From the IMG/VR virus record IMGVR_UViG_3300044852_000047, positions 1 through 64,000 of that record: a stretch of 64,000 nucleotides of DNA, one strand, 5' to 3'. The notes beneath the pieces are model-generated. The model had not been told where the DNA came from, ran no database searches, and was given only the letters and a program-made list of their open reading frames with translations. Numbering within the stretch: the stretch's first letter is position 1; every line of letters begins with the position of its first letter. The translations under genes and the position numbers were made by a program. Positions 5,618 through 55,000 of the stretch are shown in pieces. This stretch comes from a virus (Duplodnaviria > Caudoviricetes).

Positions 5618-6029
5618 CAAAGACCGCGCCGTCCTTGCCCGCACATTGTGGGGCGAGGCGCGAGGAGAGGGGATTGCTGGCCAGCAAGCGGTGGCCTGGG
5701 CCATTCGCAACAGGGTCAACGATGGAAAGGACAAGTCCTGGTGGGGCGAGGGCTACACCGGGGTGTGTCAGGCACCGTACCAGTTCAGTTGCTGGAACAA
5801 GAACGATCCGAACTACCCGTACCTCAGTGGTGCGACGCCGATCCCCAAGGGCCAGATCAACCGGGCCACCGAAGCGGCCAATGCCGTGATCGATGGTTTG
5901 GTCAAGGACCCGACGGGCGGGGCGACCCACTACTACGCCCTGAGCATGCCCAAGCCGCCGGCCTGGGTGAAAGGCGCCACGCTGACCCTGACCCTGGGCC
6001 AACACAAATTCTATAAGGACGTCCCATGA
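5598..6029 (+). CDS. Cell-wall hydrolase (Hydrolase_2/SleB family), probable endolysin
   Basis: LARTLWGEARGE, AVAWAIRNR, YQFSCWN, DPTGGATHYY, GQHKFY; AGGAG RBS before ATG 5598. Confidence 0.9.
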   Translation: MPLPITDKDRAVLARTLWGEARGEGIAGQQAVAWAIRNRVNDGKDKSWWGEGYTGVCQAPYQFSCWNKNDPNYPYLSGATPIPKGQINRATEAANAVIDGLVKDPTGGATHYYALSMPKPPAWVKGATLTLTLGQHKFYKDVP

Positions 6030-6235
6030 AACCATTGATCTTTGTTGTACTGGCTTGTGTGGTGTTGTGGCTCTCGGCCTGCACCACGTTGCCCGCAGCG
6101 GCGCCGCTACCACAGGCGGTGGCCGGTTACTGCGCACTGCCAGTGACGGATCGGGCCATCAACCGCGCTGTCATCAACAGTCTGTTGCTGCCGAACACGG
6201 TGGCGATCACCTGTGCCGGGGACGCTATTCGATGA
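6026..6235 (+). CDS. Small lipoprotein, spanin candidate
   Basis: Lipobox LSAC after hydrophobic signal; coupled to endolysin stop. Confidence 0.6.
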   Translation: MKPLIFVVLACVVLWLSACTTLPAAAPLPQAVAGYCALPVTDRAINRAVINSLLLPNTVAITCAGDAIR

Positions 6236-6741
6236 CAGACCTCACGGCTGGGCTGCTCTACCCGTACATCGGTGCTGCACCAGGGCAGTTCACCCGTGTG
6301 CCGCAACTTCTGCCGTACAAGACCGGCGAGTGGGTGGTGATGGAGGACTTCGGCTACTTCCGCAAAGACGGTAGTTATCAGCATGTTCCCAAGTACTTCA
6401 TCACCGACCTGGCGTCGATTCCTTGGCTGGCGGAACCGATGTTTGCTGACACAGACAGTCGTCTGCCGGGGATCGTCCACGACGCCAGCTACTGCTTTAA
6501 CCAGAAGCCCAAGGCGTGGTGCGACAGCATGCTGTACGAGATGCTGCAAGTAACCGGCGCTCCGTTGATGCAGAGTCATCTGATCTACGCCGGGGTTAAG
6601 GTGGGCGGCGCTTCCCGATACGACGCTTGCAAGGGCGGACCCAAGGAAGAAGACTTCGCTTGGGAGCTGATGACACCCAGTGACGACTACCTCTACAAGC
6701 AGGCTTACGGGATTTGTCAAGTAGGTGCGGAGAGAGGCTGA
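6232..6741 (+). CDS. DUF1353-family protein
   Basis: VP..FITDLASIP, IVHD..Y, CDSMLYEML, IYAGVKVGG; ATG 6232 overlaps upstream TGA. Confidence 0.8.
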   Translation: MTDLTAGLLYPYIGAAPGQFTRVPQLLPYKTGEWVVMEDFGYFRKDGSYQHVPKYFITDLASIPWLAEPMFADTDSRLPGIVHDASYCFNQKPKAWCDSMLYEMLQVTGAPLMQSHLIYAGVKVGGASRYDACKGGPKEEDFAWELMTPSDDYLYKQAYGICQVGAERG

Positions 6742-6795
6742 GAAGACCCTAAAAACAGTACCCAAATGGAAACGGCGAAGTGTCTAGGATGGGGT

Positions 6796-6824
6796 TTGCA
6801 AGGCGGGGATGTGTCGGTTATTAT
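6796..6824 (+). promoter_or_regulatory. sigma70-like promoter directed into the attP core
   Basis: TTGCAA-17 nt-TATTAT. Confidence 0.6.
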
Positions 6825-6869
6825 GGTACACGTTTTACGGTCCAAGGCACGGTTTTACTGGGTTTCAGT

Positions 6870-6919
6870 AGCGGATTGCAAATCCGCCTACGCCGGTTCG
6901 ATTCCGACCTCGGCCTCCA
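6870..6919 (+). other. attP core: 3' portion of tRNA-Cys(GCA)
   Basis: AGCGGATTGCAAATCCGC anticodon arm, GCCGGTTCGATTCCGAC T-arm, CTCGGCCTCCA 3' end; no 5' acceptor or D arm; 100 bp from integrase. Confidence 0.9.
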
Positions 6920-6924
6920 CTATT

Positions 6925-6958
6925 AAAGCCCGTAAGATTAACGTCTTACGGGCTTTTT
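6925..6958 (+). terminator. Intrinsic terminator (likely bidirectional) after att core and int
   Basis: AAAGCCCGTAAGA-TTAACG-TCTTACGGGCTTT followed by T run. Confidence 0.85.
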
Positions 6959-6977
6959 CTTGCCTGTAGAAAAACAG

Positions 6978-7013
6978 GTGTACCAGAACTTTTGGGTACG
7001 TGTACCAGAACTC
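6978..7013 (+). repeat. Two 13-bp direct repeats GTGTACCAGAACT, putative Int arm-binding sites
   Basis: Copies at 6978-6990 and 7000-7012; partial inverted copy TGGTACAC at 6824-6831. Confidence 0.7.
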
Positions 7014-7016
7014 CGG

Positions 7017-8066
7017 TCATTTGGTCGGGCTAGCGATGGCACCGATGCGGCGATAAACGCGCTCGGTGATCCCTTCTTTAGAGTGGCCCAGTAGCAGACT
7101 GGCTTCGCCAATGTCATCAATTTCAGACGCGGCTTTCGGTCGAATGTCACGGAACTGAAACTCCATGATTCGTTGAGCCATGTCTTCGGAGCCTGCTTTG
7201 CGGGCTTTGTCTGCGGCCAGCAGTCGAGCGGCATCCCAACGATTCCTGAGCATCTGCCAGGACACTCGCAGACCCTGCTTGTTGAGGATGAAGTAGGGCG
7301 ATGGGTGTCCAGCATTGCGCAGGATGATGCTGTCCAGCAGCAGCCCCAGGGTATTACGTTCAGCGCCGAGGTTGAGCTTGATGCGCAAGCGCTTTTTGGT
7401 CTTGCCCTGTTGCACCGTCAGGAAGCCATTGACCATGTCGTCTTTGCGCATGGCGAGGACGTCGGAAGGTCGCTGCCCACTCAGGTAAGCCAGGTCCATG
7501 GCATCCTGCAATTCCTGCGGAGCTTGGTCATAGACGCTGAGCCATACGGTGTCATTGGCGTAGTAGTCACGCGGTGTCTCCTTGTTCTTGCCTACCCCTT
7601 TGCAGGGATTCTCCAGACGTGTCAGGCCCCATTCACGAGCTTTATTAAACACATGAGAGAACAGTGCCAACTCTCTGTTGGCTCTGATTTTTGCGCTACG
7701 GTTGTCGCGGTAGCTGGCAATCATGGACGGGGTGATGGCGTCGATAGGTGCTGAATCAAATACCATACGCAACTGCTTGAGTTCCTTCGCATTGTCCTTC
7801 TGCGTGCGCTCGGCTTTCTTCGGGATGATGTCTTTGGCGTAGCGATCAAAGATCGACCGCATGGTGGTGAGGTCGGCTGGCTTGTCCTTGGCTTCCAGCT
7901 CGGCCCATTTAAGACGGGCCTGGTCCAGGTCTTTGCCAAGCTGAATGTCGATACCATCCGTGCCCCGGTAGACGTAGGTGGTCCACACGTCGCCGTTCTT
8001 GCGCGTACGGTTCTTCTGGTACATCCGAGGAGGCAGGTGGTGGTTCTTAGTGCTGCGTGGGCGCAT
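7017..8066 (-). CDS. int: Tyrosine recombinase (phage integrase)
   Basis: GQRPSDVL (R), FRDIRPKA, LLGHS...T..VY catalytic motifs; likely start MRPRS at 8066 overlapping xis stop (TAATG). Confidence 0.95.
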   Translation of the reverse strand: MRPRSTKNHHLPPRMYQKNRTRKNGDVWTTYVYRGTDGIDIQLGKDLDQARLKWAELEAKDKPADLTTMRSIFDRYAKDIIPKKAERTQKDNAKELKQLRMVFDSAPIDAITPSMIASYRDNRSAKIRANRELALFSHVFNKAREWGLTRLENPCKGVGKNKETPRDYYANDTVWLSVYDQAPQELQDAMDLAYLSGQRPSDVLAMRKDDMVNGFLTVQQGKTKKRLRIKLNLGAERNTLGLLLDSIILRNAGHPSPYFILNKQGLRVSWQMLRNRWDAARLLAADKARKAGSEDMAQRIMEFQFRDIRPKAASEIDDIGEASLLLGHSKEGITERVYRRIGAIASPTK

Positions 8067-8305
8067 TATCTGAGTCCTGAAAAGTCGGGCGTCCACGCCG
8101 GTTTAGGGAGGGGAGGCGCCACGGCGGTAGTCGGGGAGGGGAGTCCGAGTTTCATTCGGGCGTATTGCCGGCCCACCAGGGGGCGCTTGCCGCGACTTTC
8201 AACGAAGTGCCACTCACGTTCTTTAAGCCAGCGAATCTGCCAGCCGCGGGCAACATACCCGGTCATATCGGCTAGTTCTTCCTCACTGAGGATTTCGGTT
8301 TCCAT
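8066..8305 (-). CDS. xis: DUF4224-type excisionase / recombination directionality factor
   Basis: LSEEELADMTGY....QIRWL...G.RPLV motif; directly upstream of int. Confidence 0.8.
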   Translation of the reverse strand: METEILSEEELADMTGYVARGWQIRWLKEREWHFVESRGKRPLVGRQYARMKLGLPSPTTAVAPPLPKPAWTPDFSGLR

Positions 8306-8335
8306 GACGGCTACACCAGACAGAGGGGATTGAGG

Positions 8336-8599
8336 TTATTCGTCATAACCGTGTTCCCGCTGGCGCCTAGCTTTGGTCATTACTGCCCGAACCTCAGCAA
8401 TTAAGCTGTCGTTGTCCACGAACTGGTATTCCCCGCGCTCCATACCGAACATGAAGTCCTCGATCGCGTCGTTGTAGGCCGGGATATGACCTTGCGCACA
8501 ACAGACAACTTCATCGCCGTTGGAAGTACGCGGAAAAGTTTTTTGCTTGGTGTCACGAATCACCAGGGTGTCGTAACGAGTCTTCTTGGCTTGGGTCAT
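8336..8599 (-). CDS. Hypothetical protein
   Basis: 87 aa, GGAGG RBS. Confidence 0.7.
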   Translation of the reverse strand: MTQAKKTRYDTLVIRDTKQKTFPRTSNGDEVVCCAQGHIPAYNDAIEDFMFGMERGEYQFVDNDSLIAEVRAVMTKARRQREHGYDE

Positions 8600-8611: not shown

Positions 8612-8637
8612 AAAAAACCCCGCACTTGGCGGGGTTA
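8612..8637 (-). terminator. Intrinsic terminator after holin
   Basis: Minus strand AACCCCGC-CAAGT-GCGGGGTT-TTTTA. Confidence 0.8.
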
Positions 8638-8651
8638 GTTCGGAAACTTAA

Positions 8652-8990
8652 TTAGGGTTTGGGTGTTTCCGGTGGATCGGATAGAGGGATATTAAAACGT
8701 TGGTAGAACAACTTCTCGAGCCATTGGAAGGAACGCCCACCGACGTGCGCAGCCACGGCCACGCACAACGGTAAAGTGGCCCACTCAGGCAACATACCCA
8801 CCAACTTGGGGTAGGCACCATACATTAAGTAACCGGCCAACACCGCCGAGGCAAACTCGGTGGCCACCCACAGCACCGAGAACGGGTGCCCTTGGGAGAT
8901 GCGTTGTGCAATGGAAATGAAACCACTGATCAAACTGATCAATACAGCGCCCAACATGCTCCAAATGTTTGGATCATTCTGCCAAGGCAT
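8652..8990 (-). CDS. Putative holin
   Basis: 112 aa with 2-3 hydrophobic helices; LISGFISIAQRI...AGYLMY...AHVGGR resembles N4-type holins. Confidence 0.65.
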   Translation of the reverse strand: MPWQNDPNIWSMLGAVLISLISGFISIAQRISQGHPFSVLWVATEFASAVLAGYLMYGAYPKLVGMLPEWATLPLCVAVAAHVGGRSFQWLEKLFYQRFNIPLSDPPETPKP

Positions 8991-13571: not shown

Positions 13572-13754
13572 TTACTCCTCAGGTGCCCAGGTGACGGTCA
13601 CAGTGAACTTGCCTGCCCAGAAGCCAGGGGAGCCTTCCATTTCAGGAATCTCAGCAGCGACTGGGTTGAATCGTTGATCGAAGCATTCGCTGATGTCCCG
13701 GCTTAAATCGACGATGTTTTCGCCGTCATACGACTTTTCAAATAGCGTCTTCAT
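13572..13754 (-). CDS. Small hypothetical protein
   Basis: Start MKTLFEK overlaps pol stop. Confidence 0.6.
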   Translation of the reverse strand: MKTLFEKSYDGENIVDLSRDISECFDQRFNPVAAEIPEMEGSPGFWAGKFTVTVTWAPEE

Positions 13755-16405
13755 GCGGCTTTCTTCTGTGGTGGATTTAAGTGATCCCGGCACAACCCCC
13801 TGATCTGATCAGTGGTGGCTTTGTTGGGCAGGGTGAGGGGTTTGGCCCAACTCGGGTAGAACAGGTCCAGTGCAGCGCCGAGCTTGACGGTGGGGTGATA
13901 CAGTTCAGGGAGTTCCTGCCATTGCATGGCTTCGATCAGCTTGCGATTGGCCCACTCGACCACGTCGATGTCGTCCCTCATCAGGATGTAGATCGCGTCG
14001 TGAATCAGGCAGATCGGCAGGATCTTGTGGCGGTACGGGGAAGCCCAGACTTCCTTGAAGAACGCCACCGCGGCGCGGTTGTTGAGCAAGCCATAGGACT
14101 GCCCCATGGCATTGCCGGCTGTACGTCCTTCGGCTTGTGCCTGGTAGGTGGTGGAACGGTTGCCCAGTACGCTCTGTCCCAGCAGCGGGGTACGGACACG
14201 CAGACCAAAGGCCACTTCCACGTAGCCGTCCGTGCACGCCTGCTTAATGCGTCGGGCGATGTATTCGTCCGACACTTTGTACAGGCTGTGGTAGTTGGCT
14301 TCGATGCGCTGGGACTTCTCCTGCGTCCAGCCCAGGTTCTTCATCATGCCGTGGTACGTGCCGCCATAAGTCAGCAGGAACGTCGGTGGTTTGGAGTCCT
14401 GGCGCAGCGGGTGGTCTTCTTTCTTCAGCCGGTTGACCGACTTCGGATCGCTGTGGTCGAGGAAGATACCTTCCGCTTCCAGTTGCTCCTTGAAGTAGAA
14501 CGCGGCACGCAGCGAGTGCCCGTCGAAGCCATCGGTGTACACCTTGAGCTTGTTCGGGTCCTTGGTGGTCAGCGCACTGATCATGTCTTCCAGCGAGTTG
14601 AAGTCAGCACCGCCCATCAACCAGCCTTTCGGTGCCTTGAACATGGCCTTGACCAGCTTGCCGTAGGTCGAACTGGCTGGCATGTTCTGAAGGTTCGGAT
14701 CACTGGAAGACAGGCGACCGGACAGTGTGCCGCCCAGGTTCAGTGAACCGTGCAGCCAGCGCATGCCGTCGGCCTTGAGCTTGCCGCTCTTGAACGCAGG
14801 CAGGAACGACGACAGGATCTTCGCCACCTTGCTGTAGTCGATCAACGCCAACAGCACGTCCTTGAACGGCGTTGCCAAGATATGCCCACTGAGTGTCTCG
14901 ATCACGTCCGCACCCGTGGCCGGTTGCTTGGTGTCGGTCAACTCGATGATTGGCAAACCCATCAACTCGTACAGCAGGACCTGCAACTGCGGGTTGCTGT
15001 TGGGGTTGAACGACTTGTAATGCTTGCTCGCCGGGTCACTGAACACCGTCAGCGGGTGCTGCTTGGTCTTCAATTTGGCGTTGGCATCGGTCATCGCCTT
15101 GGTTTGCACGTACGCGTTCATCTTCGCCATGATCGGGTGGGCCATCATCGTGGCCAGGTACCCTTCCTTGGCTTGGATCAGCTGCGCTTCCCCGGCGAGG
15201 ATCTGCTCATCATCCATCGGCATGCCGACTAGTTCGGTCTGAATCAACATCTTCTGGCTGTCACGGAACAGCCCCAGGTACAGCGCCTCCTGGTTGTCAG
15301 CGACCATGACCGGGTAGTACTTGTCACGGACAAACCAGGTGGATAGTGCATCCACAAGGTTATAGCGTAACAGTTGCTCCTCCGGGATAAGACGGATGTC
15401 CTTGATGTCCTCCACCGCATAGTTGCCGGCGAATTCATGGGCCAGTGCCTTCAAGCCAAGGACGTTGCCGGCCGTGGTGTTGGTGGCCAGGTAGGCGATC
15501 AGCTTGGTGTCGTGCATGCGCTCGGCCATCAGGTCTATGCCGCGCAACATGCCTTCGTAGTCCAGCGGATGGGTCATGAACAGTTGGTAGACCAGCACCT
15601 TCACGTCATAGCCCGCGTTGTGCCAGGTCATCTCGCCCTGGTACTCCTCGAAGAACTTGACCAGCAGGGCACGCACAGGGGCGTTGAACACCTGCTGACC
15701 GTAGTGCTTCTGCTCGTTCATCTCGGGCAGCGCTTCCCAGTCCACCTTGAACGAAATACCCTCGAACATGTTCCAGGCAAAGGAGATGGTGCCCACGCCG
15801 GCTTCGTCGAACTTCAGGCTGAAGCCTTCGATGTCGGCGGTGAGTGCGGGGTACTGGTGCAGCGATTGAAGGGTCTGCTCGATCTCCCCCAGGGTCTGCG
15901 GGTAGTACTCGTACTTAATTACGTCGGCACCCAGCTTTACATAGTTGCCATGGATGTGATCGGCCAGACACTTCAGACCCATGTCCAGTTTGGTTTGCTG
16001 GGTCGGGTCAAAGATCAGGCCCTGATAGTTGTAGCCCAGTACCACCTGCATGTGCTCGTAGCCGGCAATGGCGCAGGGCAGAACGTAGCCCATGTGCACG
16101 TCGGCTTTCTTCTCCTTGGTCAAGACCTTGAAGTAGGCACCGTCGTTGACGAACAGGTACTGGGTCTTGAGGCGCTCCAGTGCTGGCAGCAGCTCATCGA
16201 TCAGGTAGCTTTTGATCAGGCCAACCGGGGCTTTACCCCCGGCGTCGTAACGCAGGCTGAAACCAATGCAGTCATTGTTGGGCACGCCCAGTACCGCCAG
16301 CGGATCGACGTAGTAACGGCGCATTTCCGCAAGGCGCAGTGTCTGGGGTTTGGTCAGGAACGCCACCTTGTAGGTGGGTGTATCGCCGAAGAGAAGGTGG
16401 TGCAT
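13751..16405 (-). CDS. DNA polymerase, family A, N4 gp39-like
   Basis: Exo DIEGF, WHNAGYD, YNLVD; GTLSGRLSSSDPNLQNMP, ADFNSLE, RQDSKPPTFLLTYG, IHDAIY. Confidence 0.95.
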   Translation of the reverse strand: MHHLLFGDTPTYKVAFLTKPQTLRLAEMRRYYVDPLAVLGVPNNDCIGFSLRYDAGGKAPVGLIKSYLIDELLPALERLKTQYLFVNDGAYFKVLTKEKKADVHMGYVLPCAIAGYEHMQVVLGYNYQGLIFDPTQQTKLDMGLKCLADHIHGNYVKLGADVIKYEYYPQTLGEIEQTLQSLHQYPALTADIEGFSLKFDEAGVGTISFAWNMFEGISFKVDWEALPEMNEQKHYGQQVFNAPVRALLVKFFEEYQGEMTWHNAGYDVKVLVYQLFMTHPLDYEGMLRGIDLMAERMHDTKLIAYLATNTTAGNVLGLKALAHEFAGNYAVEDIKDIRLIPEEQLLRYNLVDALSTWFVRDKYYPVMVADNQEALYLGLFRDSQKMLIQTELVGMPMDDEQILAGEAQLIQAKEGYLATMMAHPIMAKMNAYVQTKAMTDANAKLKTKQHPLTVFSDPASKHYKSFNPNSNPQLQVLLYELMGLPIIELTDTKQPATGADVIETLSGHILATPFKDVLLALIDYSKVAKILSSFLPAFKSGKLKADGMRWLHGSLNLGGTLSGRLSSSDPNLQNMPASSTYGKLVKAMFKAPKGWLMGGADFNSLEDMISALTTKDPNKLKVYTDGFDGHSLRAAFYFKEQLEAEGIFLDHSDPKSVNRLKKEDHPLRQDSKPPTFLLTYGGTYHGMMKNLGWTQEKSQRIEANYHSLYKVSDEYIARRIKQACTDGYVEVAFGLRVRTPLLGQSVLGNRSTTYQAQAEGRTAGNAMGQSYGLLNNRAAVAFFKEVWASPYRHKILPICLIHDAIYILMRDDIDVVEWANRKLIEAMQWQELPELYHPTVKLGAALDLFYPSWAKPLTLPNKATTDQIRGLCRDHLNPPQKKAA

Positions 16406-29417: not shown

Positions 29418-29906
29418 TGGCTAGAGGGCGCGCATAGTATCGGGTGAATATCGGTTCAGCTAATAGACAGGAAAGGAAAGAGACGGACGGTCAAAGTTTT
29501 AGGGGGAAGTTTCTATAACTTCAATAACCCAGTGTTTCACTCCAAAACCCCTCTCATTCTCTCCCTAGCAGCGCCTGTGCTGTTTTGTCCTCCTTTAAGG
29601 AGTACGCCAAGGCGTGGGAATTAATAACTCTTACATGGACTTACAGAGGCTCGGTTATCTTTTACATGAACAGAGTTCTGGTACACATTGGGTACCGGGT
29701 ACGCGTGCGCGTATCGCAGGTGTGCACTCAGCGCTATCCACTGCGTGCAGTTCTTTAGTCTATTTGGGTCACAGGTGACAGACGGATTAAGGGTGTGGGT
29801 TATCCGCCAAGGCGGAGGTACTGTCGTTCCCACTCCCTTGGTAATCCTACTGTCCCTGCTGTGTGCTCTTGCTGTGTGCTGTTTGTGTGCTGTTAAAAGG
29901 GCAAGC

Positions 29907-44400: not shown

Positions 44401-46020
44401 ATGGCGACGCCGATCACCTGGCGCAACATCAATTCGGACCCGACTCTCGGTGCGAGCCGTGCCCTGTCCGGTGCACAGCAGTCCGTACAGGACGTCAGTA
44501 AAAGCCTGATGGGGATCATTGATTCCGGTAACCAGCTCCAGGCGGATAACCGCGCCGCCATGATCAAAGGCAACACGCAGAACTTCCTAGATCAGGTGGC
44601 GGGTAAGTCCGCCACCGATCTGGCTGATCCGGCGGTACAGGCGCAACTGGCGGCACAGCGTCAATCCATGGCTTCAGCCGGTTTGATCGATCAGGCCGCG
44701 ACCCGTAATGCCACGGTGGATCAGGGTGCGCTGTTGCAAAAAGCAGCCATGCAAACCATGGAGTTCAACGACAAGTCGCAGACCGTGTCAGACCGTCCGG
44801 CCGAGCAGCAGGTAGCCCAACTGGTGGCTAACAAGGATTTCACCGGGGCGAAGCAGCTGATTGACCAGAACCACTTCTTGAACGCTCCCAGCCTGTACGA
44901 CTCGCTGACCCAAGCCCAACGTGCGGCCACCGGTGATGCGTACAAAGCACAGGATCAAGTATGGCAGGGGCAGAATCACGCACTCAGCATGGCTCAAGGT
45001 AATCAGAGCATGGACTTTGCTCGTCGCAACCAAGCGTACGCCGATACTGTTCATGCGCAGGGAATCAAGGAGATCAACGACAGCAATGCCGCAGATGCCG
45101 TGGTACGTCAACTGGATGAAGCCTATAGCACTGGACAGAAGCAACAGGCGACAGCGGTCAATGCCATTGCCGATAAGTTACAGCTGCCGCGGGACCCCAC
45201 CACCGGGGAGATTGCCTATGACAAGTTGTCGAACGACCAGGCGCAAACCATCAAGGACACCTTGAAGGCGCAGGGACTGGACCAGAATTATTCTGCCACT
45301 AGTCGTAATGCCACGGCACACGAACTGACCAAGGATCTGCCGGTGGCGATCCAGAAGCAGGTGCAGGACAAAGCCTCTATTCTAGACGCCTTCGATGCAG
45401 TGGCCCCAGCCGACCAGCCGCGTATGCAATCCTACGTGCAGCAGGCCACCAAGCAGGCCACCTCGGACCTGACCATGTTGCAGATCCAGGAGGAGAAGGA
45501 CAAACGCAATAACGTCTGGTTGAACACGTCGGCAGACCCTGAAAAGGATGCCATGGGTATTGTTGATGGCTTCATCAGCAAGCAGAAGGATCGCCCGACT
45601 GACGCCAACCAGCGCAAGTTAATTGAGGGGGCTACCAATGCACTGCGTAGTGGCATCAAGGTAAATATCGACGGCGAAGACAAGTTGGTACAAGTGCCCC
45701 CCTCGATGTTGGCCAATGCCTTGGATGCTGTGGGTTATGACCAAGCGGCTAGTATGCTGTCTTACGGTAGTTTTAAACCGGATGAAATTGGTAATTACAT
45801 CAAGGACCAGTTAGTCAATAACCCGGATATGCTGGCGCAAATGAAAGCGGCACCGCAACTAGCCGGGGCGTATGCCAAAGGAAAGATTCAACTCAGTCGC
45901 AAGATTGAAGCGGATACAACGGACGCCGTTAATACATTCAAACAACAAAATGGCATCACGCCTAATTCGTCGAGTATCATCGACCGTATTAACCGCGCCG
46001 CCAAGGAATCGAAACAGTGA
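44401..46020 (+). CDS. Virion/ejection protein (N4 gp51-like)
   Basis: MATPITWRNI start, Gln/Ala-rich, no Cys seen, precedes vRNAP. Confidence 0.75.
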   Translation: MATPITWRNINSDPTLGASRALSGAQQSVQDVSKSLMGIIDSGNQLQADNRAAMIKGNTQNFLDQVAGKSATDLADPAVQAQLAAQRQSMASAGLIDQAATRNATVDQGALLQKAAMQTMEFNDKSQTVSDRPAEQQVAQLVANKDFTGAKQLIDQNHFLNAPSLYDSLTQAQRAATGDAYKAQDQVWQGQNHALSMAQGNQSMDFARRNQAYADTVHAQGIKEINDSNAADAVVRQLDEAYSTGQKQQATAVNAIADKLQLPRDPTTGEIAYDKLSNDQAQTIKDTLKAQGLDQNYSATSRNATAHELTKDLPVAIQKQVQDKASILDAFDAVAPADQPRMQSYVQQATKQATSDLTMLQIQEEKDKRNNVWLNTSADPEKDAMGIVDGFISKQKDRPTDANQRKLIEGATNALRSGIKVNIDGEDKLVQVPPSMLANALDAVGYDQAASMLSYGSFKPDEIGNYIKDQLVNNPDMLAQMKAAPQLAGAYAKGKIQLSRKIEADTTDAVNTFKQQNGITPNSSSIIDRINRAAKESKQ

Positions 46021-49000
46021 GTGAATTTGACCTCAATGCTTACTTGTCCCGTCCCACTGCGCCTCCTAGTGAGGGTAATGGAACTTCAGAGTTTGATCTG
46101 AACAGTTATTTAAAGCGGGATAAGTTGGCGGGGGTCACTCCGTTTAAAACCATCAACCTGGATCAGGCAGTAGCCCGAGCCCAGCGCAATGTGGAACAGT
46201 CCCTGGTGGGTCACCTGGGGCTGGACCCTAATTCCATTACTGGTCAGGCAGTCAACGGCGCGGTGTCGTTTGCTTCTGGTACCAGCCGCGTGGCCGGTAA
46301 CCTGCTGACCCTGCCGCTGGACGTATTGTCTGGGCTGGCACAAGGTTCGGTCCCTAATGACGTCATTGATGCCTACTCGCGTTACACCGAGCGGCAGAAC
46401 AACCCTAATCCCGATCCAACAGCCATCTCGACCGACAGCCCGGAACAGGCAGCGGCCGATTTGGCCCTGCTCAACGGTACTGCGCAAGGCGACAGCGGTG
46501 AAGCCGGTGCCCCGCAAACCTACTTGGCTCGCCTGCAAAGCGCGGACAAGGTTCGCCAGATGGCCAAGGCGGTGGATGATCAGTTCAACATCGACCGTAC
46601 AGTAGATACCACTCGCCGCGACGTCTTCTCGGATGACCTGAAAGCCGCCACCGCCAATGGTGTGGCGGATCTGCGTCAAGCCGCACATGACTGGAACTAC
46701 GGGGATACCCCGGGCGAGACCGCCTCGGCCTTGAAGAACGGGATCTTCGGCACGGCCAGGACCGTGGGTAATGCGCTGGCGACGATCGCTACACATCCGG
46801 CCGCCATTGCCGAGTACACCGCAGAGAACATTCCGCAGCTGGCCATGGCCGCCAAAAGCGCCACGGCAATGGCCTTGAGCAATGCTGGTTATGGTTTCGA
46901 CAACTACCGCCAAGGCATCACCGATTACCAGAAAGAAAACGATGGGATGCAGCCGACCTCAGCGGATCGCCTGAAGATGGGCCTGTTCTCGGCCAGCGCC
47001 GCGTTGGCGGAAAACGTCGGTGAATCCAACCTGGTCAAAGGCCTGATGGGCCATTCCAGCAGCAATATCGTGAAGGCGGTGGGTAAGGGCGCTGCCACCG
47101 AAGGGGCGACCGAGACTTACCAGTCCTACGCGGAAGGGCAAGGCTCGCTGCAACCGGCCAGTCTGGAGTCCATTGTGGAAGGTGGCACCATCGGCGCAGC
47201 CGTCGGCGGCACCATTCATGCCGTAGGGCATGGTAACCACGGCGAGGCCACGGCGCAGGTTGAGCAGAACAAGGCGGTGGAAGACGCCTTCTCCAAAGCG
47301 GTGGAGACGGGTGACGTCACGCCTTTGACAGACACTACCAGTCCAACCTACGCCCCTGAGCGTGCGGTACAGGCACTTCATGCTGCCGTGCTGGCGCCGG
47401 ATGCGACCGAAGAGGTCAAGCAAGCCAGCCTGAAACAGGCCGATGTGATTCAGGCGGATCTGCACCAGCAGATCAAGGACATCAAGGACACCCAGACCCT
47501 CTATTCGCCGGATATGCAGGCGAACATGCAGGAAAAGATCGCTGAGAAGCAGGACCTGTTGAAAACAGCGCCGGCTGATGAGCAGGTCACCTTGCAACAG
47601 CAGATCCGTTCCTACGAGAACACGCTCGATACGGCACGCAACTACGACCCTGCGGCAGACAACGCCAAGCTAGAGCAGTTGACCCAGCAGCAAGAAGCCA
47701 CCAGTGCTGCGGTGCAGCAGTTGCACATCGATGCCAGCCCCGAGACCGGGCAAGTGGAATCCCTGGTTTCACAGGTCAACGCTCCCGCCGCCGAGGACAA
47801 CAAGGCCGCCGCTGAACAGCTGATGACCTTGACCATGTCCAACCCGGAGAGCCTGAGCCCGGAGCACATCAACAGTCTGCTGGACAACCCCGACAACCAG
47901 TTGACCCCGGAGCAACGGGACTCGCTGCGCGCCTTCAATGAAGCGCAAGTGGCGACCAATACGCTGAAAAGTAAAGACGCGGTCAGCACTGACATCTTCA
48001 CCGGCGGGGAAGGGTTCAAGGGCCTGGACGAATATCGTTCACGGTTCCGTACCGCCATGAGCACCGGCAACCCGGCACTGGCGCAGTCTGAAGTGACGCA
48101 GCTGCAAGCGTTTGCCGCCAGTCGTGAGCAAAAAGCTCAGGTACTGGCCGATGCCTACAACCAGGTCAAGGGCACGGCGGACAGTCTGCAAGTGGTCAAG
48201 ACTGATAATGGCTGGGAGATCCAGCCGCCTACCATGAGTAAACGCCAACTTCGTGCGAACGGTGGTCTGTTCGTCGATCGGACCACCTTTGCCATCCGTG
48301 ACGCGGTCCAGCTGGAAGCCAAGGCACTGAGCAAGACTGCTGATTCCATGGCTTCGCTGTTGCCATCGATCAAAGCCGCCGCACCGGTTACTCAAGCCAG
48401 TGCCCCGGCAACCACGTCCGCAGATACGCAATTACGTTCGTACATAAGCACGCCAGTAACCACCGACACCGCTACGCAGGCTACGTCGGAACAAGCACCG
48501 GTATCTGACAATGCAGCGCCGGTCTCGGATAACCTGAGTACGCCTGTTACCCCCGAAGCGGCGGCGGAGCCTGCCAAAGAAGACGGTACGCTGGACGTGA
48601 TCAAGAACACGCCCAAGGTCGAGGACACTGGTGTCGCCCCGGGCGAGTACACCAAGGGCAGCATGATTGGCAAGTTCTTCACCCAGCAAGCCAAAGGCGC
48701 CAAGGATGCAACGGCGCGTCCGCTGGTCGCGATGAAGGACTTCATCAGCAAGCTGAAGAACGATCGGGCGGTGGCCCAGTTGTTCATGGAAGACCGTGCG
48801 CCCCTGTCTCCGGCACAGGAACAGGCTGTGCAAGGCTTCCTTCAGTTTGCCGCCAAGGCCTTCCCGCACATCGAGAAGAACGTCAGCCGCAAGCTCAAGG
48901 GCGAGCAGTATCAATGGCAGGACTACGCCCAGCAGTTGTTGCAGGCGGACGGTACCCTGCCGCAGAACGTCAAGACGGCGATTGCCTACTCGATGTTTGC

Positions 49001-52000
49001 CCAGGTCAACGACATGGCCGGCGACCTGTTCAACGATGCACGGGCGATCAATACGATCCTTGGCTTGCCGTCGGACACCATCCCGAGCCGCGCCGCGTAT
49101 GCACTGCTGAGCACCATCGGCACCACCGAAGCCATCGCTGCCGCAAGCCTTGGGCAGACCATCGTCCAAGCCAGTGGCTTCAAGGCGGTCAAGGGTGCAC
49201 CAGTCAATGAGAAGGCTCGCCTAGAGACCGCACTGGGATTCCTGGCCATGAACAGCCTGGTCACCATGGGCGTTGGCGAGAAGGTTCGTGTCAGTGACGC
49301 CAAGATGCAGGCCGCCAAAGGTCGGGTCAGTGACCCTAATGAGCCGGTACAACTGAACAGAGACACTACCTTCTTCCGCCTCAAGGCCAGCCGTAATGCC
49401 GACAACAAGTTGGTGGTCAGTGATCAGGCGCAGGCCGTCCGTGAAGCCAGCAAGGGTACACAGGGTGCACTGGACAAGTTGTTCAGTGTGCAGTCGCGCT
49501 CGACAGAGCCAAGCCTGAAGCCTATCCCGTTCACTCAGGACAAGGCCAAGCGTACCCAACAGGGCATTAGCAGCACGCAAAGCCAGCTACTGGACAAGGT
49601 GGCCAAGCGCAAGCACGTCCTCAAGCAGAACATGTGGCAAGTCTGGGGTCAGCTAAGCAATCAGGCCCGCTATGCCATGGCCGGTGTGGTCAATGAAGAC
49701 CCGGTACATGTGGTCAACCAACAGTCGACCCAGGCCAAGAATGACGCATTGATGCAGGAAGTCGACAACGCTCAGGACTGGTTCAGCAACACCCTGGGCA
49801 AGACCAAGAACGCCCTGGACACTGCGTTCTACTTCATGCCGAGCGTGTGGAGCAACTACCGGGTGGGTCTGGCGCAGAACGTCATCAACCCACAAACCAG
49901 CAAAGTGCATCGCTACCTGATCAAGCAACAAGGATGGGACACGCCGATCAAGTTGGATGATCCGGCTAGCTTCCTGCACTTCCAGTTGCGGGTACTGGAA
50001 GGCTTCGGCGTCAAGACTGAAGGCAACAAGACCTCGGCGGTGATCTCCGATGCCAAAGACGGCTGGCAGGCGCAGTTGGCCAAGCCGGAAATCAAGGCAG
50101 CGGTGGATGAACTGGTCAAGTCGCTCAATGGTGAGCAGCTGAATGAATCCGTGGTTGTGGCTGGGGTCAAGGCCGGTGGTGAAGGCTTCCACTCGCTGGC
50201 GGCGCTGACCGCGCTGGCTGAAATGCAGATGGCCACCGAGTCGGGGCAGCGCACGTTTACCACGGACTTGCCTGGTGAAGTGGACGGGGTCAACAACGGC
50301 CCACAACTGTCGATGCTGTACACCGGCACCTCCAGCGAAGCAATCATGGCGCAAGGCGGGTTCTTCACCAACGACCAGCATGCCCAGTTCTCCGACTATA
50401 AAGCGGTACCGGGCAACCACGACATGTACCAGGGCCTGATGGCCAAGATCCTTACACAGATGGACCCCAAGTACCGTGACGCCCGCGTGGCGCTGGAAGG
50501 AGTGATCGGTGAGCTGGCGGATGCCGCCGGCAACATCAAGAAGGCCGGTCGTAACATCGTCAAGACGCCACTGACCGCCGTGATGTTTGGTTCGGGTATT
50601 GGTCGCGCCGTGGCGTCGATGCAGGAAACCTTCATCGAGAACCTGTACAGCAAGATCGAGCAGGTGGCAGGCCTGCCCTTTGCCCAGCAGCAAGCGGCCA
50701 TGGGTGACCTAGTAGGGCACCTCAATACACTGATCAAGACCGGTGATCCAAAGGCGGCCCTGCTGCACCCGAAATCGTCCGTCGACCAGATGATGACCAC
50801 CGAGCTGAGCAAGCAGCAGACGCAAGCCATCAGCCAAGCCTTCCTGCACGTCATCGGGCAGGCCGCGACTAACACCATGAAGAATGAGTTCGGGGTGTTC
50901 ATCGAGCGGCGCGACACCATCAACAAAACGGCGACCCGCGCCTATCGCCTGTACGCACTGGCGGAAAGTATTCTGCGCCAGCAGATACTGGAAGCGGCTG
51001 GCAATACCACCACCCGTGTGCGTGAAGGCAAGACTGACTTTCTGCATGACCTGACTGCGACACAGCAAGCTGAGTTGGACGCCCAGCTGAACAATGTGGC
51101 GCCTATCATGCACACCGCGCTGTCGTTGATGAGCGGCGAGCGCAATACCGGGATGATGTTGGCCAAGACCAAGAACACCTCGAGCAACGACACGGCCTAC
51201 AGCAGTGAGCTGGACTTTGGGCAGAAGATCCCGCAGGTGGACGATAAGGGTGTAGCCCTCAAGGATACCCAGTCGACCAAGTCCGGCGGTACTCGCCGGG
51301 TACTGGCTGAGCCAGGGGTCGGTACCATGAGCCGCGGTATTCACTCCACGGACAGTGCCAACGCGGTGCTGACCTACGGCGAACACCCAGCGATCAACAT
51401 CCACGATGCGGTACTGACCGGGATTGGTCATTTGGCTTCGGCGGCACAGGCGTTCAACAAGAACACCTTCAACGTGATGCTCAACTACTCGCCGGCACAT
51501 GAAGTACAGAAGACCTTCGAGCAGACGCTGATTGGTTTCGCTGAGTTGATGCAGGACAAAGAATTCGCCAAGCTGGCGGCCCCGCACCTGGAAGAAGTCT
51601 TCACGGACTACAACCGCAAGGGCGAAGGGTTCACCACCTTGCCTAGTTCGCAGCTGCAACAGATCCGCGGGACGGCGCTGGCGGCTGACCACAACAAGTT
51701 CAGCTCCATGGCTTCAATGACCTCGGTCGGGCAGTACGCCACCGAAGGCGGTAGCTACGCCGTTACCGAGGCCGACCGTGCCGCCGCTCTGAAGGCTCAA
51801 GAGAAACTGGTCAACCGCAGCAACCCACAGGCCGACAGTGCGATGGAAGTGCTGGAAGATCATGTGGAGCCGCAGGCGCTGGACGTACAGAAGACCGCTC
51901 TGGCGCAAGGCAGCATCGAGACCGCTACGGCAGCCACGGGTTTGAATGCCCTGGTGTCGATCAAGGACTCGGTCAGCGAAACCATGCAACAGGACATCGC

Positions 52001-55000
52001 CCAGGTGTCCCAGACCATGCTGGAGCAGAACATTCCGTTGGGGCAAGCCATCCAGGTATTGGACCCGGTGTCCCAGACCAACCTACGCGAAGCCGTGCAG
52101 GAGAATGCCCGTGCCCAGCAATCGGTGTGGGGTGAAGTCGGTAAGCCGCGCTTCGAAAGCGACCCGGTGCTGGAAGCGCTGGTGAGTCGTGTCGGCATGA
52201 CTAGCCACCAGCTGATCGATAACCTGATCCTGCACCTGGACAGCGTATTGCCTAAGGCACAGGCCCAGTTCCATAAGGAATTGCTGCAAAACGTGCGCAG
52301 CGTAACCCGGGATATTCCGGTGACCTACGTCACCCCACACACTGGCCCGGAAGGCGCCATGGGTGAGGGTGTCGACAAGTCTCGGGGCTGGTTTGCCCAG
52401 CGCGGTACCGTTCAGGGTCTGTACATCAAGTCCTCGGACTTCGTGGAATCCGGGATCACTGCGGAACTGTTGACCCATGAACTGGTGCATGCCGCGCTGT
52501 CGGGTACGGTGCAGACGGAACTGAACCGCGCCCAGCGCAACCCGAACTACAGCAGTGACGCCTTGTCGCTGGTGCGTGACCTGCAAGCGCTGCAAGCGAA
52601 AGCCCAACAACTGGTGCAGGCCAACGGTGCGCTGTCGGCCAAGTACGCCAATGCCACCAGCAACGTGCATGAGCTGATCAGCTGGGGCCTGACCAACCAG
52701 TCGTTCCAGACGGAGGTCCTGAAACAGATCAGCGTACCGGCGTCCGTGGGCAACCGTTTGTTGAACGGTGTACAAGCGTTTGTGCAGAAGATCACGGGTC
52801 TGTTGTTCAAGGGTTCGCCTAAGAGCGTCAACCAGCGTCAGGCCACTGGCATGGGACTGCTGCTGGCCAACACTGCTGGCTTGTTCAAGGCCGCCGCTGA
52901 GCGCCGTGATACCGCCAACCGGGAGCAGACCTTCAAGTACGAAGATGCTATGGACTCGGTCCAGGGCATGACTACCGATCAGGTGTACAGCGCACTGGCG
53001 GATTCGCCATCCGGCAACAAGGTCACCGATCCCCACCACGACAACGTGCTGCGTACTGTGTTGAGCAACATTGTCAGCAAGATCTATGGCCCGCACGGTG
53101 CATTCCATGAGCAGGCGCAAGCCAATGTGGCGATGACCGCCAGTGATGTGTTCCTCAAGTCGCTGGACACCGGCAAGCTGCCGTTTGCGTCGGCGGCACT
53201 GGCCTCGTCGTTCATTATCAGCGAGCAGGAAGCCTATGTACTGGAACAAGTCGAGGCGACTACCCAGTACGCCATGACCAGCAAAGAAACGCTGTTCGTC
53301 CGTTCGGCGTTGGAAGGGTTGTTCCAGCAAGCCAAGGCCAAGGTACAGGCGCGTGACTTCTATGCCGGTGACTGGTCTCAGGCCAGTGATCAGGCCAAGG
53401 CCACGGCACAGGCCAAGCACGACTTCCTGTTCAAGGCGACCTCCAATGCCGACGGCACGTCCAGTTACCTGGCCCGTTTCGCCGCACTGGGTCTGGCCAG
53501 CCAGGAAGTCAGCAAGGTCTTGCAGTTCGGTACCAGTAGTACACAGACAGCGCTGAGCAGCCTGTCAATCGGTGGCAAGATCATCGAACTGTTCAACCGT
53601 CTGCTGGCCAAGATCGCCCAGATCAACACCCGGACCTATACCGGTCAACAGGCCAATTCCCAGCTGGGACAGCTGGTCAGTCAACTGGTGGACATCGAGG
53701 CCAAGCGCAAGACACGCATGCAGGAAGCCAAGCTCAACACCTTGGACAAGCTCGAAGGCTTTATTGACGGTGGCTTGAAGTACAAGCGTCGCACCGGCCG
53801 TTCGGCTATTGCTGATTCCACCCTGTTCAAGGTGGCCTCGTCGCCACTGATTCAGGCAGTCGGGCACGCCACTACTATTCTCGCCCGGTCCCGGGTAGGT
53901 GAAGTGATGGACCGGATCAGCCTGATTCGAGACAACGCCATGAAGGGTCGCCAGGGTATCGCTATGGGCGTGATTAATGAGATCCAGGGCGTCACCGACA
54001 GTAAGCGGGCGGCCAAAGAGTTGCTGGACGGCGCCAAGTTCATTGAGCAAGGTCGTCAACACACCAACGACTATTCGGTGGATGCGGTCAACGGTTCGTT
54101 CCGCAACGGTAGCCAGGACTTGTCAGGGGTTGAACGGACTGCACTGACCCGCACCTTCCTGCGCACCAATGCGCATGCGTTGCTGGACCGCTTCGACATG
54201 ACTAGGGTTACCGCGCTGCTGAATGACCCGGTGCAGATGAGGCAGGAACGCGAAGCGCTGGAGCAGCAAGTGAAAGCGCTGGGCAGCAATGCCAACTACT
54301 ACCTGGTACAGACCAAGCATCTGGCCTACCACCGAGTGATCGGTGGATCGACCAGCGCCATGCAGATGCAGAGCGCCGAGAACATTGCCCAGTTGGTAGG
54401 TACCCACTTGCACGGCAGCGTGTCGGACACACAAGCCAAGGCTGCCGCTGATCTGCTGCGTCCGCTGATGGCGATGTACGCCCTGAATTACACCGATGCG
54501 GCCCAGAAGGCTCCGGCGCTGAAAGTGCTTCGTCAGGAAACCGGCCGTGAGGGTGGTGCCAATGGGGTTGAATACCTGTTGCTGCAACACAAGGCCCTGC
54601 TCAAGGACGCCAAGTCCAGCGTGTTCAATGGCAATGAAGCCCTGTTCGCTGATGGCTTCGTGCCGGAGATCCACGATCCTAAGATCGAGGTGGTGGCGGC
54701 GCACACACCGGAAACCATTGCCTACTTGCAAAAGTCGGGATTCGCTACGCCACCTACCGGCGGCAAGGTGCAACAGGACCCACATGTCCAGGGTCACCCG
54801 GACACAGTGCTGTTAACCCGTCGCGGCAGTGGCCAGGCGGACATCCTCACCGGCGCCGTGAGTTACACAAACCTGCATGCCAAAGGCACGCCGGTGGAAC
54901 GTCATGACGGGGCGATTAACCTGCTGGGCGGTTCGATGGGCGCCAACCAGGCCACGGTCAACCACATCCTGGTAGCACGGGATGCGGAGATCCGTGCCAT

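Follow-up and report, generated by a model that had tools for sequence, protein, structure and literature searches.

An int-xis-attP module related to those of tRNA-Cys prophages in the genome of an N4-like Pseudomonas phage

N4-like phages are regarded as strictly lytic, and this extends to Pseudomonas phages that are candidates for therapy. An integration cassette within an N4-like genome, IMG/VR record IMGVR_UViG_3300044852_000047, raises the question of whether such a phage can insert its DNA into the host chromosome. The window analyzed here covers positions 1 to 64,000 (64,000 nt) of this record, and the first-pass annotation had read it as a temperate N4-like phage carrying integrase, excisionase (Xis) and attP. 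We consider it likely that the locus is a complete λ-type site-specific recombination module (Int, Xis and an attP of about 275 bp) that lets an N4-like phage integrate at tRNA-Cys. Judged from its sequence, the module is real and probably integration-competent, and we infer a temperate life for the phage that carries it.

The full record is 74,057 bp long and its ends overlap by 127 nt, giving a circular assembly in which a tail-fibre gene runs across the record ends. An inverted-repeat artefact lies within the first 70 nt of the contig. The record is a complete genome of an N4-like Pseudomonas phage of the Schitoviridae, related to Littlefixvirus, and is collinear with Pseudomonas phage 98PfluR60PP (NC_070866; Schitoviridae, Littlefixvirus). 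Two genes serve as landmarks of this backbone:

13751..16405, − strand: N4-type DNA polymerase (PHROG match and synteny)
46017..56507, + strand: vRNAP, the virion RNA polymerase, 3496 aa (40% identity over 3518 aa to the 98PfluR60PP RNA polymerase gp43)

A Pfam search with the vRNAP reading frame gave no match. Both RNAPII subunits, the DNA polymerase, helicase, terminase, portal and a capsid of the N4-gp56 type are present by PHROG matches and synteny and stand in N4-like order, so that the complete N4-like gene set announced by the first-pass annotation is indeed there. Homologues of the capsid carry the name 'N4-gp56 family major capsid protein' and the closest of them sit on contigs of roughly 74 kb. 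Besides the vRNAP, the two phages share DNA polymerase (53% identity), TerL (67%), major capsid protein (MCP, 65%), portal (60%) and primase (62%), and in both the replication block converges with the lysis/tail-fibre block. The lineage is a singleton, the closest MCP having 74% and the closest Int 80% identity.

The cassette lies exactly where these two operons, for replication and for lysis/tail fibres, converge. In 98PfluR60PP, which has no int, xis or att, the genes gp21 and gp22 directly abut there (15263-15276), whereas the present phage carries 1.9 kb of additional DNA at the place of the gp21/gp22 junction. Its surroundings are as follows:

5592-6029: SleB-type hydrolase, before the DUF1353 gene (Pfam search)
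6232..6741, + strand: DUF1353 gene, last of the late (tail-fibre/lysis) block and left flank (Pfam DUF1353, 48 bits)
8336..8599, − strand: ORF87, upstream of xis (only unannotated PHROG families)
8616..8636, − strand: intrinsic terminator after the holin gene, right cassette boundary (−13.9 kcal/mol, z −3.2)
8652..8990, − strand: holin-like backbone gene, right flank (PHROG 6854 holin, 2e-42)

A tail-fibre chaperone gene also precedes the DUF1353 gene. The holin-like gene is homologous to gp20 of 98PfluR60PP, with 46% identity to positions 14614-14928 of that genome. No σ70-like promoter belonging to int and xis themselves was found, and both genes lie behind an intrinsic terminator.

Could the cassette be a fragment of a Pseudomonas prophage or of host DNA that was mis-joined into an N4-like contig? 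The IMG/VR origin of the record and the artefact at its start would be compatible with such a chimera, but two independent false joins would be required, and both flanks consist of backbone genes in the order of 98PfluR60PP. The G+C content is even over the cassette region (0.55-0.56), no host DNA extends past the 88 nt of att homology described below, the 5′ half of the tRNA is not host-like, and related N4-like contigs from other samples have integrases at the matching place. We regard a chimera as highly improbable and reject it on synteny and circularity.

The two genes of the module are:

7017..8066, − strand: tyrosine integrase of the λ Int type, 349 aa (Pfam, homologues, alignment to λ Int)
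8066..8305, − strand: excisionase (recombination directionality factor), DUF4224 (Pfam, PHROG)

The integrase open reading frame extends from 8096 to 7017 (− strand), but its true start is the ATG at 8066, since hundreds of Pseudomonas homologues have the same length of 349 aa. The protein is full length and the first-pass assignment to the tyrosine integrases is borne out: the catalytic domain matches Pfam Phage_integrase (PF00589) with 32.1 bits (cut-off 27.1; 33 bits in a six-frame search), and the catalytic residues are kept. At the N-terminus, PF24624 (Int_N) scores 25.8 bits, just below its cut-off of 27. The arm-binding model PF09003 gave no match for the present protein, while homologues at 65-67% identity have precomputed matches to it. 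The best solved relative in the PDB is λ Int (1e-9), to which the protein is only 26% identical and with which it probably shares the heterobivalent type of tyrosine integrase. In the alignment, Arg199, Lys222, Arg306/309, His328 and Tyr338 correspond to λ R212, K235, R311, H333 and Y342 and are invariant in the family. Unlike in λ Int, the first histidine of the HxxR motif (His-I) is replaced, by Phe or Arg in all family members, and the nucleophilic tyrosine stands one residue later.

Int is 60-80% identical to hundreds of Pseudomonas integrases, the two closest having 80% and 74% identity (the latter encoded on a 31-kb contig), and its nearest relatives all come from ordinary Pseudomonas prophages and siphoviruses (PseuP_222, F10-like phages). 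Pseudomonas phage PseuP_222 has an Int with 68% identity, but its att region holds a different tRNA fragment. In a pattern scan of GTDB genome contigs, the integrases recovered were all from Betaproteobacteria and about 40% identical; a scan of IMG/VR returned only two relatives at 54%, both in non-N4 contigs; and nothing was found in a class-level genome sample.

Xis matches DUF4224 with 42.9 bits and PHROG 4764 'excisionase' at 2.4e-27. Its TAA stop (8068-8066) overlaps the ATG of int (8066-8064) by one base, forming TAATG, as the first-pass annotation had noted in proposing translational coupling of int to a DUF4224 excisionase. An xis overlapping the start of int is also found in λ, although the present Xis belongs to DUF4224 and not to the λ Xis family. 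The pairing of xis with int is conserved in all 12 related loci that we compared. ORF87, in contrast, is not part of the portable int-xis module. We considered it as a possible hidden regulator; it had no Pfam match and a word search returned no homologue. There were 14 remote matches, one of them fused to DUF5406. Its single-sequence fold was poor, an alignment-based model reached pLDDT 85.5 and had no match in the PDB, and in the Atlas there were no more than weak leads, all below 0.9 / TM 0.5.

On the other side of int lies the attachment site, for which we annotate the following elements:

6742..6870, + strand: P arm of attP, phage-specific, without homology to the host tRNA; similarity to attB begins at 6871
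6756..6768, + strand: possible distal arm-type site with a GTACC core, weak (7/13 match), 117 nt before the core
6820..6832, − strand: arm-type site of the P arm in inverted orientation, 54 nt ahead of the core and matching the P′ repeat at 10 of 13 positions
6846..6870, + strand: pseudo 5′ half of the tRNA called by ARAGORN, not derived from tRNA-Cys
6871..6919, + strand: attP core of 49 nt, an exact copy of the 3′ portion of the Pseudomonas tRNA-Cys(GCA) gene, reaching from the anticodon stem through CCA
6925..6956, + strand: intrinsic terminator with a 14-bp stem (−21.1 kcal/mol, z −6.7)
6978..6990, + strand: arm-type site P′1, perfect 13-mer
7000..7012, + strand: arm-type site P′2, perfect 13-mer, 22-nt spacing from P′1

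The first-pass annotation had already pointed to a 50-nt tRNA-Cys 3′ core, a terminator and arm-like repeats. All three hold: homology to real tRNA-Cys genes (more than 200 genomes) starts only at 6870/6871, the terminator is strong, and the repeats comprise the two P′ copies of the 13-mer and the imperfect inverted copy in the P arm. Identity to the host reaches 54 nt (to 6924) in one genome (G432), and attP aligns with a native attB over 88 nt at 95%. The terminator falls within this stretch and is homologous to the terminator of the host tRNA-Cys gene. When phage records were searched with the cassette by megablast, the sole match was one of 89 nt, to the tRNA/terminator part. As in the attP of λ (POP′), arm-type repeats flank the core on both sides, within about 275 bp, but λ has a 15-bp core where the present phage has 49-88 nt of homology to a tRNA gene.

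ARAGORN calls a whole tRNA-Cys at 6846-6919. We reject a functional phage tRNA-Cys for several reasons: the 5′ 24 nt are not homologous to tRNA-Cys, the acceptor stem has two mismatches, the Rfam tRNA score lies below threshold (24 bits), and the fold is no better than that of shuffled sequences (z −0.6, compared to −2.1 for a host tRNA-Cys).

A full-length tRNA-Cys beside int is what one would expect at a true attL, and the ARAGORN call could thus be taken to mean that the window is an integrated prophage and its tRNA piece an attL or attR. The probability of this is close to negligible, as the 5′ 24 nt are not those of tRNA-Cys, the contig closes on itself through the 127-nt overlap with a tail-fibre gene spanning its ends, and no host genes were found on either side of the att/int region. 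Circularity and synteny, which continues across the cassette junction, lead us to reject the integrated state; the site is an attP with phage DNA on both sides, in agreement with the first-pass annotation.

To place the module among its relatives, we used a host sample of 401 genomes of the genus inferred to be Pseudomonas. When the core was compared with Pseudomonas tRNA-Cys loci, a check that the first-pass annotation had suggested, the exact 49-nt target was found in 113 of the 401 genomes. A near-full homologue of int-xis, with the module integrated at tRNA-Cys, is present in at least 35 of the 401 (about 9%); in 13 of these 35 it forms a single unbroken alignment that begins within tRNA-Cys. 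These tallies, like that of more than 200 genomes given above, include the unpublished genomes G045, G147, G314, G504, G556, G776 and G779, with G556 counted among the 113 exact-core genomes and G504 outside the 35; none of these seven contributed a sequence to the alignments. In G735 and G384, attL and attR are separated by 52.6 kb and 42.6 kb, respectively, with attL holding the whole tRNA and attR no more than a 3′ fragment. The tRNA-Cys prophages of G735, G384 and G708 resemble the present phage in Int (60-76% identity), in Xis (58-76%), in the order tRNA-Cys 3′ part, terminator, two P′ repeats, int, xis, and in the offsets of their arm sites. They differ in being 40-55 kb long and lacking N4 genes. 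The attL sites of all 12 related prophages examined have two direct P′ repeats at the matching position with 22-nt spacing, and the sequences of these repeats vary between the integrases. In the P arm, the inverted site shares its −54 offset and orientation with the attR of the G735 prophage, which also has a direct arm-site copy at the matching −117 offset. By sequence comparison, modules of this type occur commonly among prophages of the presumed Pseudomonas genus, where they target the tRNA-Cys(GCA) gene of the tRNA-Gly/tRNA-Cys cluster. The related integrated modules, the shared arm offsets, the attP copy of the host terminator and the exact target in 113 of 401 genomes are newly described here.

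These relationships invite the view that int-xis-attP was acquired from a temperate Pseudomonas phage by recombination and is now carried along neutrally or for a short time only, giving no lysogenic cycle to a phage that is otherwise lytic. The confinement of the nearest integrases to ordinary prophages and siphoviruses, the singleton status of the lineage and the failure to find a repressor or an integrated N4-like copy (see below) are consistent with this. Yet the module is intact in all its parts, among them both arms, the coupled translation and arm sites that co-vary, and the form that was captured is an attP rather than the attL of a resident prophage. Integrases are also recurrent at this location: 8 of 17 related near-complete N4-like genomes encode a tyrosine integrase downstream of the DNA polymerase gene, at a distance of 2-7 kb. 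The enzymes belong to several types and the contigs come from other samples; IMG/VR lists one related integrase-bearing N4-like record as a provirus. That about half of the related genomes have different integrases at one position argues for selection of the function there, and we judge a mere passenger to be unlikely.

Int and attP might also have a role outside lysogeny: recombination with the att sites of resident tRNA-Cys prophages, leading to gene capture or disruption of the prophage, resolution of replication multimers, or regulatory DNA binding. The presence of a homologous module at tRNA-Cys in about 9% of the sampled genomes would fit the first of these, and regulatory binding could draw on a further copy of the arm-type repeat:

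29673..29686, − strand: early control region, 14 nt identical to the arm-type repeat; membership in the system uncertain

This copy stands beside an inverted spacer motif. When the int region of a related integrase-bearing N4-like contig (G002) was compared with its early region, only 12-14-mers at chance level were shared. Nothing points directly to any of the three roles, and an excisionase together with a core that rebuilds the tRNA and brings its own terminator is the classic mark of elements that integrate into the chromosome and excise from it. We therefore hold a role outside lysogeny to be very unlikely.

For integration at tRNA-Cys, the preferred reading, the steps might run as follows. 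The injected linear DNA would first circularize; Int would then bridge the core and the arm-type sites (a direct pair in P′; in P an inverted site and perhaps a direct one) and exchange strands within the 49-54 nt that match the 3′ end of tRNA-Cys exactly. The phage copies of core and terminator would rebuild a working tRNA gene at attL, adjoining int, and Xis together with Int would reverse the reaction. Actual integration and persistence as a prophage are steps that we infer for the present phage. Its transcription cascade may be silent by default, since the early promoters depend on vRNAP brought in by the virion.

The proposal of a temperate phage stood in part. The cassette and its attP status are fully borne out, and comparison with relatives indicates an intact, integration-competent module. 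Neither an integrated N4-like copy nor a repressor came to light. No N4-like portal gene was found in any of the 401 sampled genomes, using a query that matched in four N4-like records as positive control. All 120 best capsid homologues lie on contigs of at most 78 kb, and searches of JGI metagenome contigs and IMG/VR for the arm signature, as exact and spaced repeat patterns, found no other copy. The first-pass annotation had recognized no CI-like repressor in the window, and our search of the rest of the genome extends this: among about 85 predicted proteins of the whole genome, no repressor or antirepressor of the HTH, CI, Cro, S24 or MarR families was found (for two batch scans, among the top 25 families listed).

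Integrase-bearing phages in families regarded as strictly lytic have been reported before. The T7-like LUZ100 and other such phages carry an integrase, and stable LUZ100 lysogens were not obtainable (Putzeys et al. 2023, PMC10134795). Like the present phage, LUZ100 is a podovirus with its own RNA polymerase, and it poses the same question of how a polymerase cascade is restrained. It differs in that a MarR-like regulator is co-transcribed with int, none being detectable here, and in that the polymerase that starts infection in the present phage is delivered in the virion. The first-pass annotation had likewise asked how the early promoters of an induced prophage, which has no injected vRNAP, would be activated, and the question is a fair one. 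A more speculative reading, which we consider unlikely, is lysogeny without a repressor. As early N4-like promoters are read only by the virion-borne polymerase, an integrated copy might be transcriptionally silent by default, with no need for a CI-type repressor. The arm-repeat copy in the early control region suggests that the integration proteins might act in the switch and in its reversal. Induction could then occur through leaky host transcription of vRNAP or RNAPII, or through a superinfecting relative supplying vRNAP in trans.

Integrase-bearing N4-like viruses were mined from IMG/VR by Zheng et al. 2023 (mSystems, PMC10654107), in agreement with the first-pass remark that such phages are known mainly from genome mining. 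That study proposed a lysogenic strategy for parts of the family and described 54 N4-like genomes with lysogeny hallmark genes and 40 integrated proviruses, mostly in Moraxella; attP, excisionase, repressor and induction go unmentioned in it, and no case from Pseudomonas is named. The present phage is likewise a vRNAP-carrying N4-like genome with a tyrosine integrase and is less novel because of this publication. In contrast to the published genomes, its att site, tRNA-Cys target, arm sites, donor module family and backbone insertion point are resolved. The gain lies in detail and testability, not in a new category.

With the exact target in over a quarter of the sampled genomes, the assumption that N4-like phages are strictly lytic needs checking genome by genome. 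The locus also points to a route by which integrative N4-like phages may arise: a portable int-xis-attP unit, common to ordinary Pseudomonas prophages, is inserted at a single fixed place, where the operons converge behind the replication genes, and relatives occupy this place with other integrases. The phage also makes it possible to study, in a host genus that can be cultured, how a cascade started by a virion polymerase would be silenced and restarted.

ARAGORN calls a whole tRNA-Cys at 6846-6919 of the window, a reading that we reject, because the acceptor stem contains A·G and C·C mismatches, Rfam tRNA models stay far under threshold on this segment, it folds like its shuffles and no better (the host tRNA-Cys gives a cloverleaf) and homology begins only at 6870-6871, the point at which similarity to real tRNA-Cys genes always starts across more than 200 sampled gammaproteobacterial genomes. 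The tRNA-derived part of attP is therefore confined to the 3' 49-50 nt, in agreement with the 50-nt core proposed in the first-pass annotation, which had also named a terminator and arm-like repeats; both are present.

Features of attP around the core (6871-6919)
6820-6832: inverted arm copy, matching the 13-mer at 10 of 13 positions
6925-6956: terminator, 14-bp hairpin followed by a U-run (-21.1 kcal/mol, z -6.7)
6978-6990 and 7000-7012: P' arm repeats, the perfect 13-mer GTGTACCAGAACT twice

The P arm also contains a sigma70-like promoter, TTGCAA-17-TATTAT (6795-6824, plus strand; a consensus match only), which aims into the tRNA-Cys fragment and terminator and overlaps the inverted arm site.

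Host genomes were represented by 401 species genomes of the genus of G384, a genome reached via a class-level sample; all tallies refer to species representatives, a few unpublished genomes included. We infer that this genus is Pseudomonas; integrases in its genomes share 96-97% identity with NCBI proteins named P. entomophila and P. phoenicis. The tRNA-Cys(GCA) gene located after tRNA-Gly(GCC) is the native target. Comparison of the core with host tRNA-Cys loci, suggested in the first-pass annotation, returned the exact 49-nt sequence in 113 of the 401 genomes. In some species the alignment with attP is identical over 54 nt (6871-6924), and in four genomes (G755, G497, G631, G635) homology extends through the terminator (88 nt at 95%), so that the terminator beside the core is copied from that of the host tRNA.

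Near-full-length matches to int-xis, at 65-69% nucleotide identity, were found in 35 of the 401 genomes, and in 13 of these the alignment is unbroken from within tRNA-Cys through the terminator, int and xis. A second copy of the core lies 52.6 kb away in one sampled genome, G735, and 42.6 kb away in G384; in both, the int side has the complete tRNA-Cys (attL), and a 3' fragment alone makes up the far copy (attR). The terminators of attL and attR differ in G384, the crossover therefore falling within the tRNA part, with the phage-borne terminator landing behind the rebuilt tRNA. In every one of the 12 attL sites examined, a pair of direct repeats stands as far from the core as in the window and is likewise spaced by 22 nt; the sequence of the repeat differs between integrases (GAGTTCCGAAACT in most). 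Relative to the core, the attR of G735 places an inverted arm copy at -54 and a direct one at -117; our attP likewise has its inverted copy at exactly -54, and shows a weak match containing GTACC at -117. Of all the evidence that the attP described here is complete and would be functional, this conserved arm geometry weighs most. Downstream of the G735 attR (locus L055, G735:C3:113350-113950), a second arm-like repeat pair at +108 and +128 suggests tandem accretion, with a trace of an element that occupied this tRNA-Cys site earlier.

The int ORF exceeds the Pfam gathering score and, since hundreds of its homologues are 349 aa long, its true start is the ATG at 8066. Upstream of it, xis encodes 79 aa, belongs to DUF4224 and falls within a PHROG annotated as excisionase; its TAA stop overlaps the int ATG by one base (TAATG), so that the tyrosine integrase coupled to a DUF4224 Xis, as originally read, is confirmed in both its parts. 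The best solved relative of Int is lambda Int. In an alignment with it and ten family members, Arg199, Lys222, Arg306/Arg309, His328 and Tyr338 are conserved, corresponding to lambda R212, K235, R311, H333 and Y342. In every aligned family member another residue takes the place of the first His of HxxR, and the catalytic Tyr is shifted by one residue relative to lambda, likewise in all demonstrably integrated Pseudomonas members. Judged by these residues, Int looks active. The family is overwhelmingly from Pseudomonas, with named homologues at 65-69% in P. piscis, P. granadensis, P. putida, P. koreensis, P. entomophila and others. Among cultured phages, the closest integrase (68%) is that of Pseudomonas phage PseuP_222, whose att region (L038, 5050-5480) has a different tRNA 3' fragment and arm repeats of the same general form; core specificity in the family therefore changes while arm sites stay similar.

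Pseudomonas phage 98PfluR60PP (Schitoviridae, Littlefixvirus) is collinear throughout with the window's phage. Its rightward replication block (DNA polymerase, dCMP deaminase, holin-like gp20, gp21) converges head-on with the leftward lysis/tail-fibre block (Rz-like spanin gp22 onward) at 15263-15276.

Genes and signals flanking the integrase module, and the virion RNA polymerase
8336-8599, minus strand: ORF87, upstream of xis, from a very small family
8636-8616, minus strand: intrinsic terminator after the holin gene
8990..8652, minus strand: holin gene, 46% identity to the 98PfluR60PP homologue
46017-56507: vRNAP ORF, 3496 aa, 40% identity along its entire length to the 98PfluR60PP virion RNA polymerase

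Beyond the terminator of the holin gene the order is ORF87, xis, int, attP and then DUF1353, the last late-block gene, which ends at 6741. As int and xis lie behind this terminator and have no sigma70-like promoter of their own, they are probably expressed by read-through from the middle operon. The portable unit consists of attP, int and xis; ORF87 is absent beside related modules. A search of 1.8 billion representatives gave ORF87 14 matches; the family has a conserved R-Y-D-T ... G-H motif, and DUF5406 is fused to one of its members. The confident AF2 model of ORF87 had no fold match in the PDB. A tyrosine integrase lies 2-7 kb downstream of DNA polymerase in 8 of 17 related near-complete N4-like IMG/VR genomes, so relatives use the same slot too, filling it with integrases of several types unrelated to one another. 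One such genome, G810 (L162, G810:C1:12086-14133), bears a genuine tRNA-Arg(ACG), scored at 68 bits by Rfam, at 0.9 kb from int. In G808 (L160/L161), classed as a provirus by IMG/VR, the record end truncates int, and the first 35 nt resemble a tRNA 3' fragment. Another slot integrase is found at L012 (G002:10973-12208).

The window covers positions 1-64000 of an IMG/VR virus record of 74,057 bp, which is 100% complete by CheckV. The final 127 nt of the record recur near its start at 99% identity, the mark of a circular assembly. The N4-like gene set recognized at first reading is substantiated by collinearity with 98PfluR60PP, by the vRNAP homology and by hallmarks found in PHROG and Pfam scans (DNA polymerase, both RNAPII subunits, Dda-like helicase, large terminase, portal and major head protein); single-stranded DNA-binding, RuvC-like and gp49-family proteins were also found. 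Identities to 98PfluR60PP are 53% for DNA polymerase, 67% for TerL, 65% for capsid, 60% for portal and 62% for primase. Despite the collinearity, the phage is isolated: a search of 5.8 billion proteins gave a nearest capsid at 74% identity, and the nearest DNA polymerase in IMG/VR is at 55%. Long minus-strand ORFs at the record end (72874-74050 of the record and 1-700 of the window) match the 98PfluR60PP strand opposite its annotated tail-fibre gene and are therefore antisense shadows, the real plus-strand tail-fibre gene spanning the contig ends. The first 70 nt of the record contain a hairpin-like inverted repeat that resembles an assembly artefact. Within the structural block, on the opposite strand and adjoining dUTPase, a 155-aa protein (33932-34399, minus strand; PHROG 872) has a Tad2-like (Thoeris anti-defence 2) domain (Pfam 1.7e-18).

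Lysogeny is not proven. The N4-like portal gene was found in none of the 401 genomes of the sampled genus, with a query that reached E < 1e-260 in four N4-like records at 58-61% identity. The best 120 capsid homologues are all on contigs of at most 78 kb, and the arm-repeat signature has no other copy in JGI metagenome contigs or IMG/VR. Family scans of the ~85 predicted proteins of the whole genome, with the top 25 families listed in batch scans, gave no HTH, CI, Cro, S24 or MarR among the matches listed, in line with the lack of a recognizable repressor noted earlier for the window. The small ORF87 family without a recognizable fold, and the position of int and xis behind a terminator with no sigma70-like promoter of their own, count on the same side.

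Integrase-bearing N4-like phages are already known: Zheng et al. 2023 (PMC10654107), mining IMG/VR, counted 54 N4-like genomes that carry lysogeny hallmark genes and, mostly in Moraxella, 40 integrated proviruses; their analysis did not extend to att sites, excisionases, repressors or Pseudomonas cases. The present module therefore forms no new category; it is well resolved and experimentally tractable. For LUZ100, an integrase-bearing T7-like phage, stable lysogens were not obtained (PMC10134795).

The phage carries an intact Int/Xis pair; in its attP, core and terminator are copies of the host tRNA-Cys locus; the arm geometry is conserved, and homologous modules are integrated at that locus. 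The injected linear genome would circularise, and Int, probably with a host bending protein, would recombine attP with attB within the tRNA segment. The resulting prophage would have the order attL-int-xis-ORF87-holin ... replication ... early region ... packaging/structural genes-vRNAP ... primase ... tail fibres-lysis-attR, and Xis with Int would reverse the integration. An exact 14-nt copy of the arm repeat lies at 29673-29686 (minus strand) in a 500-bp non-coding early region; immediately before it stands the 9-mer spacer of the two att repeats in inverted form, which gives three GTACC motifs within 25 nt (context 29640-29715). A shared word of 14 nt arose in 2 of 300 simulated genomes; the phage has no close relative for a conservation comparison. 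It is an unexplained observation that bears on how a prophage stays quiet or wakes. One attractive possibility is that the prophage would be silent by default, its early promoters requiring vRNAP brought in by the virion.
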